DNA of 64,000 bases, taken from IMG/VR virus record IMGVR_UViG_3300021960_000030, positions 32,001 through 96,000 of that record. One strand, 5' to 3'. Of this stretch, positions 17,314 through 32,055 are shown in pieces. The notes beneath the pieces were generated by a model. That model did not search any database. It was not told the origin of the DNA and saw only the letters and a program-made list of their open reading frames with translations. Source of the DNA: a virus. How positions within the stretch are numbered: the stretch's first letter is position 1; the number at the start of each line of letters is the position of its first letter. The translations under genes were made by a program, and so were the position numbers.

Positions 17314-17412
17314 TTAATACTCCGAGTAACACACAACAGTATATAGATTTTCTCAGTGTTTGTGATACAACCAGACGTACACGTCAGCACGCACAGGTCT
17401 GAGAAACTTTTT

Positions 17413-17552
17413 ACCCCTGGAAAAAATATTTTGTAGAGAGATATTCGCAATCTCTTTTAGGGTGAGGAAGATATACGACCATTCCTCACGGGGGGTCGTA
17501 GCGAGGGTCTGGGGGGTCTCAGAACCCCTGGAAATATTTTTAGAGAGAGATA
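17413..17552. repeat. Imperfect direct repeat ACCCCTGGAAA(AA)TATTTT-TAGAGAGA(GA)TA x2 in the non-coding junction
   Basis: Copies start at 17413 and 17524. Confidence 0.6.
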
Positions 17553-17645
17553 ACACTAGGGCGATCCTATACTTTTGTAGGTTAGGGAAGTGGGGCGTTT
17601 TAATATAGCGAAATGGGGGACACGATTGCATCCCCATTGTATACA

Positions 17646-17828
17646 CTAACTGTAACTCACATCATAACAGAAACCCTCTGCAATCATGTAGTCTGTGAAT
17701 CTTTGATACTGTTGGAGATCTTCACTCAAACCAGTATCAATAAGGAACTGTGCTAACTCTATCTGTTCGTCGGGTGGGAGTGATCCTGCGTCGTACAGAT
17801 CTAGGAGAAGTTGATACTTTTCAGGCAT
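17646..17828 (-). CDS. Hypothetical protein (MPEKYQLL...)
   Basis: ORF track 17646..17855. An internal ATG overlapping the upstream stop is preferred. Confidence 0.65.
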   Translation of the reverse strand: MPEKYQLLLDLYDAGSLPPDEQIELAQFLIDTGLSEDLQQYQRFTDYMIAEGFCYDVSYS

Positions 17829-17994
17829 TGGGTTGTTTACTGTAATCGGATGCATCTTGCAATGCTAGTTGATAACTCTTGAATGGTCCAAACTTAGGAC
17901 AACCTTCGTAATCATATCGCCAGAAGTGTTTACGATGGTTTTCCCAGATCTGTATATCAACTGGGGGATTCGTGTTGAGGGTGATAGTTTTCAA
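17821..17994 (-). CDS. Small hypothetical protein (57 aa, TTG start)
   Basis: Hand translation KTITLNTNPPVDIQIWENHRKHFWRYDYEGCPKFGPFKSY..., with overlapping stop/start on both sides. Confidence 0.55.
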   Translation of the reverse strand: MKTITLNTNPPVDIQIWENHRKHFWRYDYEGCPKFGPFKSYQLALQDASDYSKQPNA

Positions 17995-18122
17995 CTCCAA
18001 TCACCTCGGCAATCATGAGCGAACTCGGGCAGCATAGCATCATCAATGTCGAGGTCTTCGCTCAGTTCGTCATCATCGGAGAGCATGTAATCAATCCAGT
18101 CCTGGGCATTGAAATCATCCAT
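17991..18122 (-). CDS. Small acidic hypothetical protein (43 aa)
   Basis: Hand translation MDDFNAQDWIDYMLSDDDELSEDLDIDD..., coupled to its neighbours. Confidence 0.5.
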   Translation of the reverse strand: MDDFNAQDWIDYMLSDDDELSEDLDIDDAMLPEFAHDCRGDWS

Positions 18123-18301
18123 CAATCTGCCTCCCAATGGTCATCAGTAGCAGTGAATGGTTTCTTATACTTTTCAACAAAAGTGTCTGTGGAATCTGTG
18201 GAAAACTCTCGACGATCTTTGTTTCCCCAGTTACGCTTCTCTCTGATAGATTTGGGACGACGTGAGTTGTGAATGTCGTTCTTCTTGTATGTGCGACCCA
18301 T
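18122..18301 (-). CDS. Small hypothetical protein (59 aa)
   Basis: Hand translation MGRTYKKNDIHNSRRPKSIREKR..., downstream of a sigma70-like promoter. Confidence 0.6.
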   Translation of the reverse strand: MGRTYKKNDIHNSRRPKSIREKRNWGNKDRREFSTDSTDTFVEKYKKPFTATDDHWEAD

Positions 18302-18550
18302 GGGATTCTGAATGACAGTGTTAGTGAAGGACTCTGTTAGTATGTATCAATCAAGGGGGCATTGTCAAGGGGTTTGTGAGGGTTTCTGAAGTGTCCTGGG
18401 GGTGTTGCTAACTCGCTGTCGATGTGTTACAGTCCGAGGTAACAATAACCACACACATTAACACGAACTATCGAACACTAATGTATGTTTATTAGACCAT
18501 TTCTTAAATACACAGTTTTCCACAGACATTGTGGAAAAAGTTGTGGAAAA
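18171..18550. promoter_or_regulatory. Cluster of cyanobacterial-type DnaA boxes (TTTTCCACA)
   Basis: Perfect boxes at 18197-18205, 18516-18524, 18530-18538 and 18542-18550. Near-matches at 18171-18179 and 18188-18196. Confidence 0.6.
18339..18368 (-). promoter_or_regulatory. Sigma70-like promoter TTGACA-N18-CATACT
   Basis: Perfect -35 at 18363-18368 and near-consensus -10 at 18339-18344. Confidence 0.55.
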
Positions 18551-18561
18551 CTGCGCGTTCA

Positions 18562-19206
18562 TTAAGTAATGCCTACAGGGACAACATTGAATGAGATAGT
18601 GATACGATTATCCCCTAGGTTTGATTCATATCCATGAGTCAGATTAGGAGGATAGATTAACACAGTTCCCTCGTTATGAGGTACATAGCACTCGGGTTGA
18701 TTGAATGCGGTTTCTTTACTACATTCGATCTGCAATGCTGGGAAATGAGTAGAAACAACGTGTCGTCTAAACTTCAATGGAGAATGAACTTTCTTGTCTA
18801 GATTGAGAAAATACGTTCCCGAATACAGAGCATTAGAATGTTCATGTGGAGCATAGATTGCACCCTCTGATGCTATCTCTAGGTAGGACTCTTGTATGTC
18901 AAATCTTGATGCATAGCACCAGGCATTTTCGTTGTGTTTGGATACTAGATCAAGCAGGATTGTTTTCAGTTCAGGCAGATCATTTAGCAGTTCATTGTCA
19001 TTCCCTACAGTGACAACATTGTGAGAAATCATTCTCCTACCATGATCAGGATTGAGATCCTTAGTTCTCATCCAGGAGAGGATTTGTTGTTTGACGTTGT
19101 TATGATCGGGAACGTCAAATGCAGAGATGGCAGAAGGGAAACATGCGAAGGTTTGATTCTTATGTAATACCTCTTCAGTGAGATTGTCAGAGAGTTGATC
19201 AGTCAT
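18562..19206 (-). CDS. 2OG-Fe(II) oxygenase, TIGR02466-like
   Basis: PHEHSNALYSGTYFL...IYPPNLTHG...RITISFN. The ORF track start is 19239 and MTDQ at 19206 is likely. Confidence 0.85.
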   Translation of the reverse strand: MTDQLSDNLTEEVLHKNQTFACFPSAISAFDVPDHNNVKQQILSWMRTKDLNPDHGRRMISHNVVTVGNDNELLNDLPELKTILLDLVSKHNENAWCYASRFDIQESYLEIASEGAIYAPHEHSNALYSGTYFLNLDKKVHSPLKFRRHVVSTHFPALQIECSKETAFNQPECYVPHNEGTVLIYPPNLTHGYESNLGDNRITISFNVVPVGIT

Positions 19207-19208
19207 GT

Positions 19209-19622
19209 TTAGCGAAGATAGAGATAATGACCTGCCCAATCTGCTTTACGATAACACTCTTCGCGAGAGTTCTTATCAAACAGATTGAAACGAATGCCTT
19301 TGGCAGGTTTAGAAATGGAGGCGGGTTTATATACGTCACCCGTCACCTTATCTATGAAACAATGAACAGAACGGGATCCGCTCTGATTCATCATCACTTT
19401 AGCATACTTGCGTCCTTCTTCTACATCAAAGGAAATGCGCCAATCAAAACGATCTTCGCGGATTGCATCCAGTTGTGATTGGAAATAACCCGTATCATCA
19501 GCACCTTTACTAACCTGATGACGATAGGACTTTACAGTGTAGAGTCGATAATCTTGCTCCAGTGATTCACACAAACAGGCGATCAAAGTGTTGAGCGGAG
19601 TGTTGTTCAGAGTTTCGAGCAT
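19209..19622 (-). CDS. Conserved phage hypothetical protein
   Basis: GRKYAKV..SVHCFIDKVTGDVYKPASISKPAKGIRFNL is a recurrent phage early-gene family. Confidence 0.8.
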   Translation of the reverse strand: MLETLNNTPLNTLIACLCESLEQDYRLYTVKSYRHQVSKGADDTGYFQSQLDAIREDRFDWRISFDVEEGRKYAKVMMNQSGSRSVHCFIDKVTGDVYKPASISKPAKGIRFNLFDKNSREECYRKADWAGHYLYLR

Positions 19623-19627
19623 TTGAT

Positions 19628-19792
19628 TCAGTTAGCGGTGCGTTGAATGAGATTGCCAGTCAGGTGAAATGCTTCGCCAGTGTGGTAACGAACGCCAGGA
19701 AAAAGAATAAACGAAACGACGAAGATGATGCCAATGAGTTTCACTTTTCTGGGGTCAAGTGGTTTGCAAGTGAGGCGCTTACGGCGTGCCAT
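19628..19792 (-). CDS. Small membrane protein (54 aa)
   Basis: Hand translation MARRKRLTCKPLDPRKVKLIGIIFVVSFILFPG... Confidence 0.55.
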   Translation of the reverse strand: MARRKRLTCKPLDPRKVKLIGIIFVVSFILFPGVRYHTGEAFHLTGNLIQRTAN

Positions 19793-19796
19793 TGTA

Positions 19797-20129
19797 TCAA
19801 CCGAGGCGCATGGAAGAGAAGAAAGGAACGATGGAAATACCTTGGGCAGTGTTCATCGAAACGAACCAATCGAAGTTCTTTTGAAACACACCATCACCCG
19901 ATTCGCCGTGCTCTTTGAGAATAGCATTCAGGCGGGATTTGGTGGTGTTGGATTGCCAACCACCATCGAAAAGACGGATGTAAGTCTCACCCACGTCTGC
20001 AATGTGATTGCCGTGCAGATACACTTTAGACTCACCAGTGTCGGCGTCAAAGGTAACAGAAGTGTTACCAGATTGCCAGTTCACGTTGTTGGTGATGGCG
20101 GCGTTCATTTGGGTTTCGATCTTACGCAT
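19797..20129 (-). CDS. Conserved cyanophage early hypothetical protein
   Basis: MRKIETQM..VYLHGNHIA..DGGWQSNTTKSRLNAIL. First gene after a promoter cassette. Confidence 0.8.
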   Translation of the reverse strand: MRKIETQMNAAITNNVNWQSGNTSVTFDADTGESKVYLHGNHIADVGETYIRLFDGGWQSNTTKSRLNAILKEHGESGDGVFQKNFDWFVSMNTAQGISIVPFFSSMRLG

Positions 20130-24833: not shown

Positions 24834-25403
24834 TCATAGTATAGGCACAGGATTGCGGAGATCCAGGGGATCGTGGACAGCAAGTGGACTGGCACACTTC
24901 CAGACGTACCCGAGACTGTATCGAATAGGTTCACTCACAGGAGGGCAACCTTGATGCCATATTGTACTGTCAAACAGCACTAATCGCCCTGGTTTGCACT
25001 CAACATGCATAGTTTCACCCTGTTCAGTATAAAACAGAGTGTCACCATCGCCTCTGATGTAATACAGACCACTGATTCTGTCGCTTCCCTTTAGAACATC
25101 CCAATCCGTGTGACTTTGGGCGTTCTGCCCAGGCGTCTGCACGTTCAGCAGGCAGCGATCAAGTTTTTGGATTCTATAATCCAACAGGATGTCATTGCAC
25201 ACTACCATATGCAAATAGTCCACAAACCAATGAGGAGCAATGGGTGCAATCCATCGCTCCTCATCGATAAGCAACTGACCAAAGAACCGACTCACTTCAT
25301 ACTGACCGTAGGGTGAGTTGGTATAGGTTACAGGTATAAGTTGAAACTCTTCTGCATTCTTATTCACCATCCATTGTGGGAAATAGTTATCAACTATCAA
25401 CAT
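24834..25403 (-). CDS. 2OG-Fe(II) oxygenase
   Basis: SHTD...GDTLFY...KPGRLVLFDSTIWHQG..P...RYSL. Confidence 0.85.
   Translation of the reverse strand: MLIVDNYFPQWMVNKNAEEFQLIPVTYTNSPYGQYEVSRFFGQLLIDEERWIAPIAPHWFVDYLHMVVCNDILLDYRIQKLDRCLLNVQTPGQNAQSHTDWDVLKGSDRISGLYYIRGDGDTLFYTEQGETMHVECKPGRLVLFDSTIWHQGCPPVSEPIRYSLGYVWKCASPLAVHDPLDLRNPVPIL
24838..24895 (-). promoter_or_regulatory. Early promoter cassette copy 6: GTGCCAGT-N7-CTGTCCAC-N29-TATACT
   Basis: Repeated element embedded in the 3' end of the oxygenase gene. Confidence 0.75.
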
Positions 25404-25905
25404 GTTGAATACGTTCAGAAATAACCTTAATCATGATAGCACGGATCTCTTCAGGGGCAAAACCTTGAGTGTTAAAGAAGCACGAGTTGCTACCAGCATT
25501 ATATGTATCAAACCCATCAAGGTGTGCAACGTTGAGTGCCTTACCGATCACACCATCAGAGTATGCACCCTCACCGATTGCAAAGGTGACGTATGACACA
25601 TCAGGGTTAATCTTGCGGCAGATGTAGTTGTTCTTGAACCAGCGTTCGATAGCATTACCAGCATCTTGCTGCTTCTTACCTTCAAACACTGCGATCAGTT
25701 TGCCCTTGTAGAACCATGCACCACCATCAGGTTCGCAGGCACCTTTACCACCAGGGATCTGATTCTTCTTCAACTTCTTCTGCAATGTCACACCAGTATA
25801 TTGCAGAACGTCTGCAATCTCTTCCTTGATGACTTTACATTGGTTGTCAAGTTTGCGAGCATGTGCATCAGTAGCAACCATGCCTTTCTGAATGCCGCCT
25901 GCCAT
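25390..25905 (-). CDS. EcoRI-family type II restriction-like endonuclease (orphan, ~171 aa)
   Basis: Catalytic PDGG...EGK (PD-(D/E)xK), followed by AGNAIERWFKN and YVTF..GEG, matches EcoRI PDGG/EAK/AGNAIERSHKN/YVLFLEG. The ORF track start is 25968. ATG 25905 lies downstream of the -10. Confidence 0.8.
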   Translation of the reverse strand: MAGGIQKGMVATDAHARKLDNQCKVIKEEIADVLQYTGVTLQKKLKKNQIPGGKGACEPDGGAWFYKGKLIAVFEGKKQQDAGNAIERWFKNNYICRKINPDVSYVTFAIGEGAYSDGVIGKALNVAHLDGFDTYNAGSNSCFFNTQGFAPEEIRAIMIKVISERIQHVDS

Positions 25906-25930
25906 TGTCTTGTGTCGTTTGGACTTCTTC

Positions 25931-25990
25931 ATTATACACACAGAAAAGGGGCGGTGGTGCCGCCCCATGTGGAGGTTGATGGACTGTCAC
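25931..25990 (-). promoter_or_regulatory. Early promoter cassette copy 7 (GTGACAGT-N7-CCTCCACA ... TATAAT) driving the nuclease
   Basis: Left half-site at 25983-25990 and perfect TATAAT at 25931-25936. Confidence 0.7.
25943..25966 (-). terminator. Rho-independent terminator inside the promoter spacer
   Basis: GGGGCGG-CACCA-CCGCCCC followed by TTT(C)T on the minus strand, just after the lysozyme stop. Confidence 0.65.
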
Positions 25991-26478
25991 ATTGTATATT
26001 TCAGTTTCATCTTTCGATGGTATTGATATGCAAAGTGGGTTCGATTGCCATGGATACCCCAACCCAACCAGGGATAAGAATCACGCACATATTGTGGGAT
26101 TGTTTTCCCTGGGGTTTTCATCCTAGGCAGAATGCCTTGGAACTGCTGCTCATTGTAGAGATAACGGAGTTGTCCTTCCAACGAGTCAACATTGCAGGTA
26201 TGCTTATAGCAAAACTTTGCTAGTCCGTTATACCTGTGTATTGTGGTCCATTGAATCAAACCAAATCCACCAGACTTGCATCCATAATATCCTGTGAGTG
26301 CACCACCTTCGCAAACGAGATGATTAAAGTTGCTTTCTTGCTTGATGTTACCCATCAGTGCAGCGAGAGCATTCTTATCCTTGATCCCTTTTTCTTGAAA
26401 GAACGAGAGTGTTCTTTGTTCGGCAGGGGTACAAGTTTCACATTGATATATGGGTGCAGGAGGTTGATCGTAAAGCAT
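25987..26478 (-). CDS. Phage tail-tip-type lysozyme (Phage_lysozyme2-like)
   Basis: AALMGNIKQESNF...GFGLIQWT..R...QLRYL. Confidence 0.8.
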   Translation of the reverse strand: MLYDQPPAPIYQCETCTPAEQRTLSFFQEKGIKDKNALAALMGNIKQESNFNHLVCEGGALTGYYGCKSGGFGLIQWTTIHRYNGLAKFCYKHTCNVDSLEGQLRYLYNEQQFQGILPRMKTPGKTIPQYVRDSYPWLGWGIHGNRTHFAYQYHRKMKLKYTM

Positions 26479-26483
26479 TAGAT

Positions 26484-27722
26484 TTAGACGAGGGACAGAG
26501 GAGGAATGCCTTTCACGAAGATAGCATCAACTACGTTCTGCAGTCGTTTGGTCACTTGCTTACCGTATGTGCGGTGCACAGGGACAGTTACATAACCGAA
26601 AGGTTTCCTGTAAAAGTCAAACTTACCAGGGGTAAGTTCACCGCTGCGAATGCGAGCGGCGTCATCCTTATGTAGACGGATAACACGCCCGATGGTCTGT
26701 GCCATCTCAACAACGTTGAGATTGCGGAGCAGGATGCAGTGAGTCAGTCCAGGAACGTTGATACCTTCAGACAGAATACTGTAGTGGAAGATAACAAACT
26801 TCTTGGTAGGATCGGCACCCCAAGATGTCAGGGTGTTGAAGAACTGCTCACGATTGACTTTCTTATCGTCTACATAGGCACCGAACTTAGAGGTAACGTG
26901 GAGAACATTGTAACCACGATCCTTAAGTTGTTGGAGAAGATCGGTCTGACCGATCATGTTACCTAGCACACGACTAGACGGCACTGCAACAAGAACCTTG
27001 GCAGCATGAGTATCATCGAGATTGTCAATGATGTCCTGCACGGTGTTGCTGTCAACGACATGTGCGTTGACCTTGTTACGAGTATTGTCTGTGGTGAATG
27101 GCACAATCTGGGGAGGGATGATGCTACCGTTGTTGATCAGTTCCGAAGCAGGAACGTTCTCAATGACGGCACCATAGACCTCACGATTGTGCATTCCACG
27201 CTCATGCTTGTGCGAGATGCGAGGAGTAGCAGTGAAGAAGTAGCAACGCTCTGCAACATCAGAGATGGCAAAGGTGCTGGTGAAGAAAGACTTAGCAACA
27301 CTATTGTGTGCCTCGTCAAAGTACACTGCACTGATATTGATGCCTGCATCAACTACACGACCCAGCGAATGATAGGTGGTGAAGATGATGCAGGACTCAC
27401 CTGCTGCACGAGCGGTGTTGTTGAAGAGAGCAATCTTGCTGCTCTTGGTAGAGTGAAAGTAATGGGTTTCACCACTGTGAGCGTGACACACATGCACAGA
27501 CTTGCTGTCAATGAACTGCATGAACTCATCACACAGTTGAGTAGCAAGCAGGATGCGAGGAGCAACAACAACAATCGTAGAAGATTGCTGCAGTTGACAC
27601 AGTGCATCCTGAATCATGATGAAAGTCTTGCCACCGCCAGTAGGGACAATGATTTGACCCTTATCGTTGACTTGCATTGCTGCAAGGGCACGATCTTGGT
27701 GAGGACGAAGAACAACAGTCAT
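26484..27722 (-). CDS. SF2 DEAH-box helicase (ResIII-like)
   Basis: LRPHQ, PTGGGKT, DEAH, TATP, ILSEGINVP and QTIGRVIR motifs. Confidence 0.92.
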   Translation of the reverse strand: MTVVLRPHQDRALAAMQVNDKGQIIVPTGGGKTFIMIQDALCQLQQSSTIVVVAPRILLATQLCDEFMQFIDSKSVHVCHAHSGETHYFHSTKSSKIALFNNTARAAGESCIIFTTYHSLGRVVDAGINISAVYFDEAHNSVAKSFFTSTFAISDVAERCYFFTATPRISHKHERGMHNREVYGAVIENVPASELINNGSIIPPQIVPFTTDNTRNKVNAHVVDSNTVQDIIDNLDDTHAAKVLVAVPSSRVLGNMIGQTDLLQQLKDRGYNVLHVTSKFGAYVDDKKVNREQFFNTLTSWGADPTKKFVIFHYSILSEGINVPGLTHCILLRNLNVVEMAQTIGRVIRLHKDDAARIRSGELTPGKFDFYRKPFGYVTVPVHRTYGKQVTKRLQNVVDAIFVKGIPPLSLV

Positions 27723-31387: not shown

Positions 31388-32055
31388 TTAGATTCCCTCT
31401 TCATGATTAAATCCCAGGACTTATATGGTGCCCAGTGTTTGAGTTGCTGATCCTGTTTGATCCTTTCTAGTTTATCAGGAGATGGTGTCTTTCTACTCAG
31501 TTTGAATGTATCTTTACCACGCACAAACTTAGCATGAAAGATAGGTGTGCCACGTTTGATTACTATATCGTCATCAATACGATGAGGAACAATACCAATG
31601 GGCAACGATCTCATCCATGATGAGACAGGAAATGTGCCAGGGACAACACTAAACCCATGTTGTGCAACTGTGGGGTGTCCAGTATATTCTACCCACACAT
31701 TCTTGGCATCAGTCCAGAACAATGTATTGTATCTGATTTGTATCTCAGGCAGTTCATCATTCCACCAGTTAGGACTAATCATGAACAGATCTTGGAGTTT
31801 ATCTCCATGCGTATCAGATCCGATCATGCGATGCTCATTGCTACACCTGAAGTGTAGATCAAATGGGAAATAGAATGTCCACCTATTCTTACACCACTCT
31901 TTGTGTGCTGGGCAATACATATGGTCGTGAGACTTTATCCCATCATTGTATGCAATGGTGGGTGTAATCTCCCAATCTTCAGCAAAGGTAGGAATCTGGT
32001 AGTCCTCATCAGGACCAGAAGGAATCACTGATGTGTGATATACATTTACTGCCAT
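31363..32055 (-). CDS. Hypothetical protein (DUF6065-like, CPA motif)
   Basis: YCPA...FYFPFD...VVPG...IKRGTPI and a C-terminal KCPF. Similar to 33709..34431. Confidence 0.6.
   Translation of the reverse strand: MAVNVYHTSVIPSGPDEDYQIPTFAEDWEITPTIAYNDGIKSHDHMYCPAHKEWCKNRWTFYFPFDLHFRCSNEHRMIGSDTHGDKLQDLFMISPNWWNDELPEIQIRYNTLFWTDAKNVWVEYTGHPTVAQHGFSVVPGTFPVSSWMRSLPIGIVPHRIDDDIVIKRGTPIFHAKFVRGKDTFKLSRKTPSPDKLERIKQDQQLKHWAPYKSWDLIMKRESKCPFRIHF

Follow-up and report, generated by a model that had tools for sequence, protein, structure and literature searches.

How can a phage keep a gene for an EcoRI-like restriction endonuclease when no DNA methyltransferase gene accompanies it? The question is raised by a 64,000-bp stretch of the IMG/VR virus record IMGVR_UViG_3300021960_000030 (positions 32,001 to 96,000; hereafter, the window), which belongs to a T4-like cyanomyovirus of Synechococcus (Kyanoviridae) with S-RIM2 and S-BM1 among its relatives. 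The coding sequence at issue lies at 25390-25905 on the minus strand and encodes a short EcoRI-like PD-(D/E)XK endonuclease of 171 amino acids (aa), a member of PHROG 2400. An initial annotation, made by reading the sequence, had noted this gene together with an apparent lack of the tetranucleotide AATT and had proposed a methylase-free phage restriction system. The window is contained in a 111,864-bp contig, estimated by CheckV to be 63% complete. We consider it moderately probable that the gene encodes an AATT-core restriction endonuclease from a short, phage-borne EcoRI branch, which has been orphaned from a Dam-derived methylase and is tolerated since the genome is kept AATT-free.

Identification of the nuclease as an EcoRI homolog

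No Pfam family matched the nuclease at an expectation (E) value of 1 or below, and NCBIfam likewise gave no family. PHROG 2400, which is annotated as being of "unknown function", matched at E = 4.6e-80. Close relatives number 324 in a set of 5.8 billion proteins, and the family forms 277 clusters at 50% identity, nearly all with members of 160-210 aa. The nearest clusters found by a language model (Atlas) are viral, and no relative was found among 185,579 species-representative cellular genomes in a search limited to the pattern GNAIERW[FY], which leaves other motif variants uncovered.

PDB searches by phmmer with the single protein or with a profile of 28 close relatives returned only noise. 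A profile of 74 diverse relatives, reaching down to 27% identity, matched EcoRI at E = 1.4e-11 in two blocks (EcoRI residues 26-116 and 137-175) that align the PDGG, E-x-K and GNAIER segments and skip EcoRI residues 117-136, the inner arm. Structural comparison, one of the checks proposed in the initial annotation, placed EcoRI first by two routes and gave no other strong match. The top five Foldseek matches of the predicted structure (AlphaFold/AF2; predicted local distance difference test, pLDDT, of 82.7) were all EcoRI (E = 4.4e-5 to 1.1e-4), and VIA gave EcoRI a Z of 14.1, with a root-mean-square deviation of 2.7 Å over 151 residues, followed by a next match at Z 8.9 and MunI at Z 7.2. By sequence profile and by fold, the nuclease is a true EcoRI homolog.

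The PDGG, EGK and AGNAIER motifs pointed out in the initial annotation were found at residues 80-83, 96-98 and 103-109, numbered on the longest frame of the open reading frame (ORF; 25390-25968, minus strand, 192 aa), and the 28 close relatives show no variation at their core residues. In the profile alignment, P80-D81-G82-G83 (25720-25731, minus strand) holds the first catalytic acid and corresponds to EcoRI P90-D91-G92-G93; the segment is invariant in the close set and at least 90% conserved in the 74. E96-G-K98 (25675-25683, minus strand) supplies the second acid and the lysine (EcoRI E111-A-K113), and all three of D81, E96 and K98 are invariant among the close relatives and at least 90% conserved among the diverse ones. 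G104-N-A-I-E-R109 (25642-25659, minus strand) is identical to EcoRI G140-N141-A142-I-E144-R145, with G104, N105 and R109 invariant in 74 of 74 relatives, down to 27% identity. D91, E111 and K113 of EcoRI are catalytic, and N141, A142 and R145 contact the inner A:T pairs of AATT (PMC4081073). The residue preceding GNAIER is alanine in this nuclease and arginine in most relatives. In the family at large, GNAxER keeps G, N and R fixed but admits I, H, C, E, G, A, N, Y or Q as its fourth residue; judging from the alignment, this position may mark sub-families with altered specificity.

The true coding sequence is shorter than the longest frame, because the relatives all start at the equivalent of Met22 ("M(A/x)GGIQ" in the family alignment) and the first 21 codons of the 192-aa frame span a terminator hairpin and a TATAAT box. 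Starting at Met22 gives 171 aa, the size first estimated, which is about 100 residues short of EcoRI (277 aa). The missing insert between the catalytic and recognition segments was also confirmed: only five residues (KQQDA) separate K98 from G104, and EcoRI residues 117-136 have no counterpart. The word "minimal" is less apt, since 171 aa is not extreme beside MunI, with a solved chain of 200 residues.

Modeled as a homodimer, the nuclease scored 0.69 (best control, 0.01), passing a mark that 20 of 30 proteins known from structures as homo-pairs also attained, as did 1 of 23 known as single chains. Three runs had at least 86% of contacts in common, with partner pLDDT of at least 84, and placed the interface on the GNAIER helix, as in EcoRI. 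The pass may reflect the model's memory of solved EcoRI dimers.

Absence of AATT and its maintenance

Direct counting bears out the initial annotation, in which AATT had been sought by eye. The window contains 0 copies, where base composition predicts 363 and a second-order Markov model 221, so that the word is far from its normal frequency. It is equally absent from the whole contig (0 copies, 339 expected), in which AAT is followed by A 506 times, by C 647 times, by G 569 times and by T never, and all sixteen flank combinations of NAATTN are missing. A count of zero is far beyond chance. TTAA, ATAT, TATA and GATC are frequent, as had been noticed (277, 461, 307 and 673 copies in the contig, respectively). 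A library or assembly artifact was rejected as the cause: ORFs run on unbroken over the 112 kb, and AATT is missing as well from L004, a contig of independent origin with 86% nucleotide identity.

The purge is thus real, but it is not confined to AATT, which the initial annotation did not notice. CCGG is also absent (0 copies, 154 expected); these two are the only tetramers missing from the contig, and AATT-free, CCGG-free DNA extends over positions 1-64000 of the window and on across the contig. The RGCY words AGCC, AGCT, GGCC and GGCT stand at 0.13-0.26 of expectation, a 4- to 8-fold depletion. Among palindromic hexamers with an expectation of at least 5, 13 of 46 have zero copies, versus 0 of 3,664 non-palindromic hexamers. 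The purging of so many palindromes bears the mark of pressure exerted by numerous Type II restriction enzymes and not by a single one. Specific to this lineage are the full purges of ACTAGT, ATTAAT, TTTAAA and AGTACT and the near loss of TTATAA (2/13); in related phages these five hexamers stand at 0.3-0.8 of expectation.

The independent contig (L004/L051) is a sister of the one studied here, with about 86% nucleotide identity overall and amino acid identities of 92% for the nuclease and 96% for the helicase. It shares the order helicase, lysozyme-like ORF, nuclease, likewise shows no methylase (PF02086, over 74 kb), and contains 0 copies of AATT in its nuclease locus (77 expected). The ratio of non-synonymous to synonymous substitution rates (dN/dS) between the two nuclease genes is 0.09 at a dS of 0.30, with 27 synonymous and 11 non-synonymous differences. 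A pseudogene reading was rejected on this ratio, which indicates purifying selection on the gene in the methylase-less lineage. There are 6,469 words that are one mutation away from AATT, and at 13% nucleotide divergence some 140 new AATT sites per lineage would have arisen under neutrality. As none is present, the absence of AATT is actively maintained.

The methylase partner in related phages

Six methyltransferase families (PF02086, PF01555, PF00145, PF13651, PF02384 and PF05869) had no match in the 111,864-bp contig, nor did tblastn with the methyltransferases of relatives find anything there, and PF02086 is absent from the 74-kb sister contig. The statement that the window encodes no DNA methyltransferase therefore holds for the whole of the partial contig.

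The further claim, that the system is methylase-free by nature, does not survive comparison with relatives. In 43 of 47 IMG/VR loci a D12 methylase lies just downstream of the nuclease, typically 3-20 bp away or overlapping. The nuclease stop codon of S-BM1 overlaps the start of a gene annotated "DNA adenine methylase", which is followed by the helicase; one ORF separates nuclease and methylase in S-RIM2, and in S-CREM2, where the nuclease is annotated as EcoRI-like, the pair stands three genes apart. The pairing recurs in metagenome loci and with nuclease homologs that are only 27-58% identical. The nuclease family is normally one half of a classical restriction-modification (R-M) pair with a Dam-like N6-methyladenine methylase, and the orphan state seen here is derived, by secondary loss.

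The partner methylase is Dam-like (DpnM match, E = 1.6e-22) and differs from EcoDam at two contact positions. The position of K9, which concerns the first base pair, holds I, M or V in 45 of the 46 partner methylases extracted, S-CREM2 keeping K, and T in two further loci. R124, by which EcoDam recognizes the G of the fourth base pair, is replaced by Q in 46 of 46. EcoDam R124A is reported to lose C:G discrimination (PMC4417163). Going by these two residues, the partner most likely methylates N-A-T-N with outer pairs other than G:C, which fits A-A-T-T.

The solitary Dam of S-RIM8-like cyanophages keeps both K9 and R124, and those phages are GATC-depleted (0.07-0.15). Five loci of such phages (L095, L098, L107, L114 and L121) have a canonical solitary Dam beside the helicase and GATC at 0.0-0.5 of expectation (pooled, 0.15); three others (L069, L077 and L128) are GATC-depleted with no methylase detected in the locus. 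In the solitary-Dam phages, methylation and site avoidance bear on one word, GATC, in parallel to the AATT case. GATC itself, to which the partner's resemblance to DpnM and Dam had pointed, was rejected as the target of the nuclease: the contig has 673 copies of it and no methylase, and neither of the two residues that contact G is present in the partner methylases. CCGG is unlikely as a target since the conserved partner methylates adenine, although it may be one in the clades that have no methylase.

The paper describing S-CREM2 mentions the methylase only generically, and no description of a cyanophage AATT system or of AATT avoidance in cyanophages was found in the searchable literature.

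AATT depletion among cyanomyoviruses

For comparison, 80 loci of related phages were fetched via the neighboring helicase, 73 of which have neither nuclease nor methylase. In these 73, observed over expected frequencies are 0.85 for AATT, 0.02 for CCGG, 0.13 for AGCT and 0.16 for GGCC. Because CCGG and RGCY are purged in loci lacking the nuclease, their purging is unrelated to it. In the 73 nuclease-free loci of the control series L052-L130, CCGG was observed 14 times against 772 expected, and ACGCGT, CTCGAG, GACGTC, GCATGC, GGCGCC and GTCGAC stand at 0.01-0.08 in control cyanomyovirus loci. Strong, shared avoidance of multiple restriction sites seems general to this phage group, and most of the purges noted in the present contig recur in cyanomyoviruses without the nuclease.

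AATT behaves differently from these words, being the best of the 136 strand-collapsed tetramers at separating loci with nuclease and methylase from nuclease-free loci. The median ratio is 0.36 in the former (n = 34) versus 0.84 in the latter (n = 70; p = 5.6e-15), a value to be taken as indicative only, as carrier and control loci were sampled differently and are phylogenetically non-independent, so that p-values overstate the difference. Pooled counts give 1110/2751 (0.40) versus 6645/7895 (0.84), and every nuclease-free locus of at least 8 kb has a ratio of 0.50 or more. All ten flank classes of AATT are lower in carriers, from 0.24-0.27 of the non-carrier density for GAATTC and TAATTA to 0.80 for AAATTT and CAATTG. 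Relatives lacking the module are thus not equally AATT-free (0.84-0.85); had they been so, a host R-M system would have been indicated instead, according to the initial annotation. Co-occurrence of AATT loss with the gene across cyanomyoviruses, which that annotation proposed to test, held in part: AATT is the top discriminating tetramer, but one nuclease-bearing clade (P0072, below) has normal AATT and loci with a methylase only are depleted. Cleavage at an AATT-containing palindrome is supported indirectly, by depletion that tracks the gene and by the absence of AATT here.

In L210 (IMGVR_UViG_3300025695_000225), a phage contig of 14 kb whose Q-type D12 methylase is solitary, a single AATT was counted where 80 are expected. 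This is a second, independent near-total AATT purge.

Proposed mechanism and alternative explanations

We propose that the product of 25390-25905 would be an active, homodimeric Type IIP restriction endonuclease, most likely with AATT as the core of its recognition site. In the majority of marine cyanomyoviruses this nuclease belongs to a conventional R-M cassette, together with a D12 (Dam-like) N6-adenine methylase whose specificity appears to have shifted from GATC to a site in which the outer pairs are A:T. In this lineage the methylase has been lost, and the solitary nuclease gene is preceded by a terminator and a candidate -10 box of its own. The genome would tolerate the nuclease through the removal of every AATT, kept out by ongoing selection, and the unguarded enzyme would cut AATT-bearing DNA in the infected cell, i.e., the host chromosome and co-infecting phages, while phage DNA would offer it no target. 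The choice of AATT follows from three points: an active Type II enzyme that is not countered by modification needs a site absent from its own genome, only AATT and CCGG are absent, and the partner methylates adenine. We infer the AATT specificity, the activity, the timing of expression and the biological use of the enzyme; its homology to EcoRI, its conserved residues and the selection on its gene are observed in the sequences themselves.

The functional picture built on this is held with less confidence, and we would not put it quite at an even chance. It describes an offensive restriction enzyme without a modification partner, in which the genome was recoded to be AATT-free, the methylase of an ancestral AATT cassette was dropped, and the bare nuclease destroys host or rival DNA. 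More broadly, AATT modules with nuclease and methylase, methylase only or nuclease only would shape cyanophage tetranucleotide composition as a phage-against-phage weapon.

Several observations weigh against an AATT-specific orphan nuclease. The main one comes from the P0072 clade (L027, L032 and L133-L138), in which the nuclease is intact, with all motifs, about 66% identity and a dN/dS of about 0.10, and AATT stands at 0.7-1.0 of expectation. No D12 or N6_N4 methylase was found in this clade within 6 kb upstream or 10 kb downstream of the nuclease, or in a 23-kb contig, and CCGG is the only palindrome absent from both the clade and this genome. Either the clade is protected in some other way or the AATT assignment is wrong. 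As its contigs span 5-11% of a genome, protection may come from a methylase encoded far from the nuclease or from some other modification. In the P0072 clade the nuclease gene follows a Kyano_Gp96 gene and precedes a DUF6267 (KxDG motif) gene, and the baseplate module lies downstream of it.

A second difficulty comes from loci that have a Q-type methylase but no neighboring nuclease, in which AATT is depleted as well (median, 0.48). Since methylase-only phages avoid AATT, external AATT restriction could have driven the purge, and it may be exerted by hosts or by rival phages equipped with the same nuclease. The lineage-specific losses of ACTAGT, ATTAAT, TTTAAA, TTATAA and AGTACT have no link to the nuclease, so complete purges arise here for other reasons as well. 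The Pfam EcoRI model (PF02963) misses the nuclease and matches only 4 of the 74 relatives, weakly (best E = 2e-4). To these are added the uneven sampling of loci noted above and the completeness of the contig (about 63% by estimate), as the absence of a methylase covers the sequenced part.

Among competing explanations, the one that fares best, though we regard it as unlikely, holds that the AATT purge was imposed externally by host or competitor restriction and that the nuclease is a passenger of unrelated specificity (e.g., CCGG) or a nuclease that acts in a mobile element or in repair. That a strong purge can come about without a phage nuclease is demonstrated by the values for CCGG (0.02) and for AGCT and GGCC (0.13-0.16) in the 73 nuclease-free loci; ACTAGT, ATTAAT and TTTAAA have reached zero counts in this lineage, methylase-only phages are AATT-depleted, and the P0072 clade joins the nuclease to normal AATT, with CCGG alone missing from both clades. 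This account leaves unexplained that AATT is the top discriminating tetramer for nuclease carriers, and that the GNAIER residues reading AATT in EcoRI are conserved, with G, N and R invariant. The adenine methylase partner means that the site of the cassette contains A, which excludes CCGG for the paired forms. Nor is a host homolog evident, given the negative GNAIERW[FY] search of 185,579 cellular genomes and the viral identity of the nearest Atlas clusters.

A still less probable variant accepts the AATT core and makes the site longer or degenerate (an EcoRI- or MunI-like hexamer, or subsets of NAATTN), so that the total purge exceeds what the enzyme needs. All ten flank classes are reduced in carriers and all sixteen flanks are absent here, which speaks for the bare tetramer, as do the lack of about 100 EcoRI residues, including the inner arm, and the citation of MluCI, an AATT cutter, as related to EcoRI and MunI (PMC4081073). 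The longer site draws on the fact that EcoRI and MunI, the nearest relatives with solved structures, both cut 6-bp sites, on the uneven flank depletion in carriers (GAATTC and TAATTA, 0.24-0.27; AAATTT and CAATTG, 0.80), and on the residue before GNAIER, which is R in most relatives and A in this nuclease.

We give little credence to an ordinary split R-M system, with a cognate methylase or another modification encoded in the unsequenced part of the genome (about 37%). The estimated 63% completeness leaves room for one, the nuclease has moved relative to its S-BM1 position and the methylase could have moved too, and the P0072 clade suggests that distant protection is possible; set against this, zero AATT in 112 kb leaves an AATT methylase almost no substrate, six methyltransferase families are negative over the same 112 kb and PF02086 over the 74-kb sister contig, and the methylase is adjacent in 43 of 47 relatives. 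It is scarcely credible that the gene has lost its function and is decaying as a remnant of a former R-M cassette: the methylase partner is gone and the gene sits in a hypervariable region of small ORFs, but dN/dS is 0.09 at a dS of 0.30 (27 synonymous versus 11 non-synonymous changes), the catalytic and recognition residues are all intact, and the gene has its own terminator and -10 arrangement.

If the enzyme cuts AATT, this lineage would be an example from nature of a phage shielded from its own restriction enzyme purely by the elimination of sites, a strategy usually thought too fragile to persist that would here have been kept over substantial divergence. There would also be an abundant, unannotated R-M module in marine cyanomyoviruses, with hundreds of metagenomic members labeled "hypothetical", and its apparently re-specified Dam-like methylase would help to explain oligonucleotide biases in ecologically important cyanophages. 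A 171-aa AATT cutter with matching methylases in S-RIM2 and S-BM1 would offer a compact model of EcoRI-type inner-tetramer reading and possibly a reagent. Should the enzyme prove not to cut AATT, there would remain a phage that strongly avoids many restriction sites and a conserved nuclease still to be explained.

Comparison with known systems

The nuclease shares with EcoRI (G^AATTC; PF02963; PDB 1ERI, 1CKQ and 2OXV) the fold, the register of the D91/E111/K113 triad, an identical GNAIER and a predicted symmetric dimer formed via the same helix. These features, the dimer in silico, are those of an EcoRI-like Type IIP enzyme with a GNA(I/H)ER segment, although the match to PF02963 stays below threshold. 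Unlike EcoRI, which has 277 aa, the nuclease has 171 and lacks the inner arm (117-136) and other peripheral parts, its site is probably of 4 bp, and the partner methylase of its relatives is D12/Dam-like and not of the EcoRI_methylase family. As to Type II R-M systems in general, no cognate methyltransferase is present in the 111,864 bp, and nuclease and methylase are adjacent in relatives.

MunI (C^AATTG; PDB 1D02) is likewise a small enzyme of the EcoRI group with an AATT core and a solved chain of 200 residues. Some relatives of the nuclease carry the GNAHER variant of MunI, and a viral Atlas cluster with PF11407 is a near neighbor. Fold similarity to MunI is only Z 7.2, however, and the family profile gives no sequence match to it. 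MluCI/Tsp509I (^AATT) are small AATT readers of the EcoRI group too; the basis for linking the nuclease to them is a remark in a review, which names EcoRI, MunI and MluCI as possibly mosaic relatives (PMC4081073).

The cassettes of S-RIM2, S-BM1 and S-CREM2 contain orthologous nucleases (56-69% identity), annotated "hypothetical protein" or "restriction endonuclease EcoRI", in the same virus family and in a similar helicase neighborhood. They differ from the present locus in that the methylase is kept, and here there is none, no AATT and a different gene order. AATT stands at about 0.26 of expectation in S-RIM2 and S-BM1 and at 0.64 in S-CREM2.

T4 endonucleases II and IV destroy host DNA, and phage DNA is protected by hydroxymethylcytosine; the DNA of chlorella viruses is protected from their R-M enzymes by methylation. 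The proposed logic is alike, in that a virus endonuclease attacks all DNA but its own, whereas protection there is by base modification and here would be by absence of the site. The genome of Staphylococcus phage K is GATC-free, a case of restriction-site avoidance. Here as there, a phage genome longer than 100 kb has been completely cleared of a 4-bp palindrome; the restricting enzyme is the host's in the known cases, whereas here a candidate enzyme for the missing site is phage-encoded. The system proposed is a variant of Type II R-M, restriction-site avoidance and self-sparing virus nucleases, and represents no new category.

Gene neighborhood

The nuclease gene is preceded by a terminator-like hairpin with seven G:C pairs and a T-run (25948-25966, minus strand), which ends the upstream helicase/lysozyme-like unit, and by a perfect TATAAT (25931-25936, minus strand), a candidate -10 box that lies 25 nt upstream of the ATG. 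No -35 element was seen upstream of this box and the promoter scan called no site there; TGNTATAAT was also without a match at this TATAAT. The early promoter cassette of the initial annotation is accordingly upheld as to the hairpin with its T-run and the -10 box, but not as to a -35 element or a called promoter. Separate (early) transcription of the nuclease gene is plausible from this arrangement. Downstream, a 2OG-Fe(II) oxygenase ORF (24834-25403, minus strand) has a start that overlaps the nuclease stop by 14 nt, and the two are probably co-transcribed.

The order of genes here is helicase, lysozyme-like ORF, nuclease, oxygenase, and in S-BM1 and S-RIM2 it is nuclease, methyltransferase, helicase. 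The helicase (ResIII/DEAD; 26484-27722, minus strand) served as the anchor for the control loci. Just upstream of the nuclease in S-CREM2 (L003; OR473000.1), a gene at 17383-19992 is annotated "CRISPR-associated endonuclease Cas9/Csn1 (virion protein)", which looks like an over-annotation. Between helicase and nuclease in the present window lies a Phage_lysozyme2-like ORF of 163 aa (25987-26478, minus strand; PF18013, E = 2.4e-12), and a tail-lysozyme-like domain among early-type small genes is in an unusual location.

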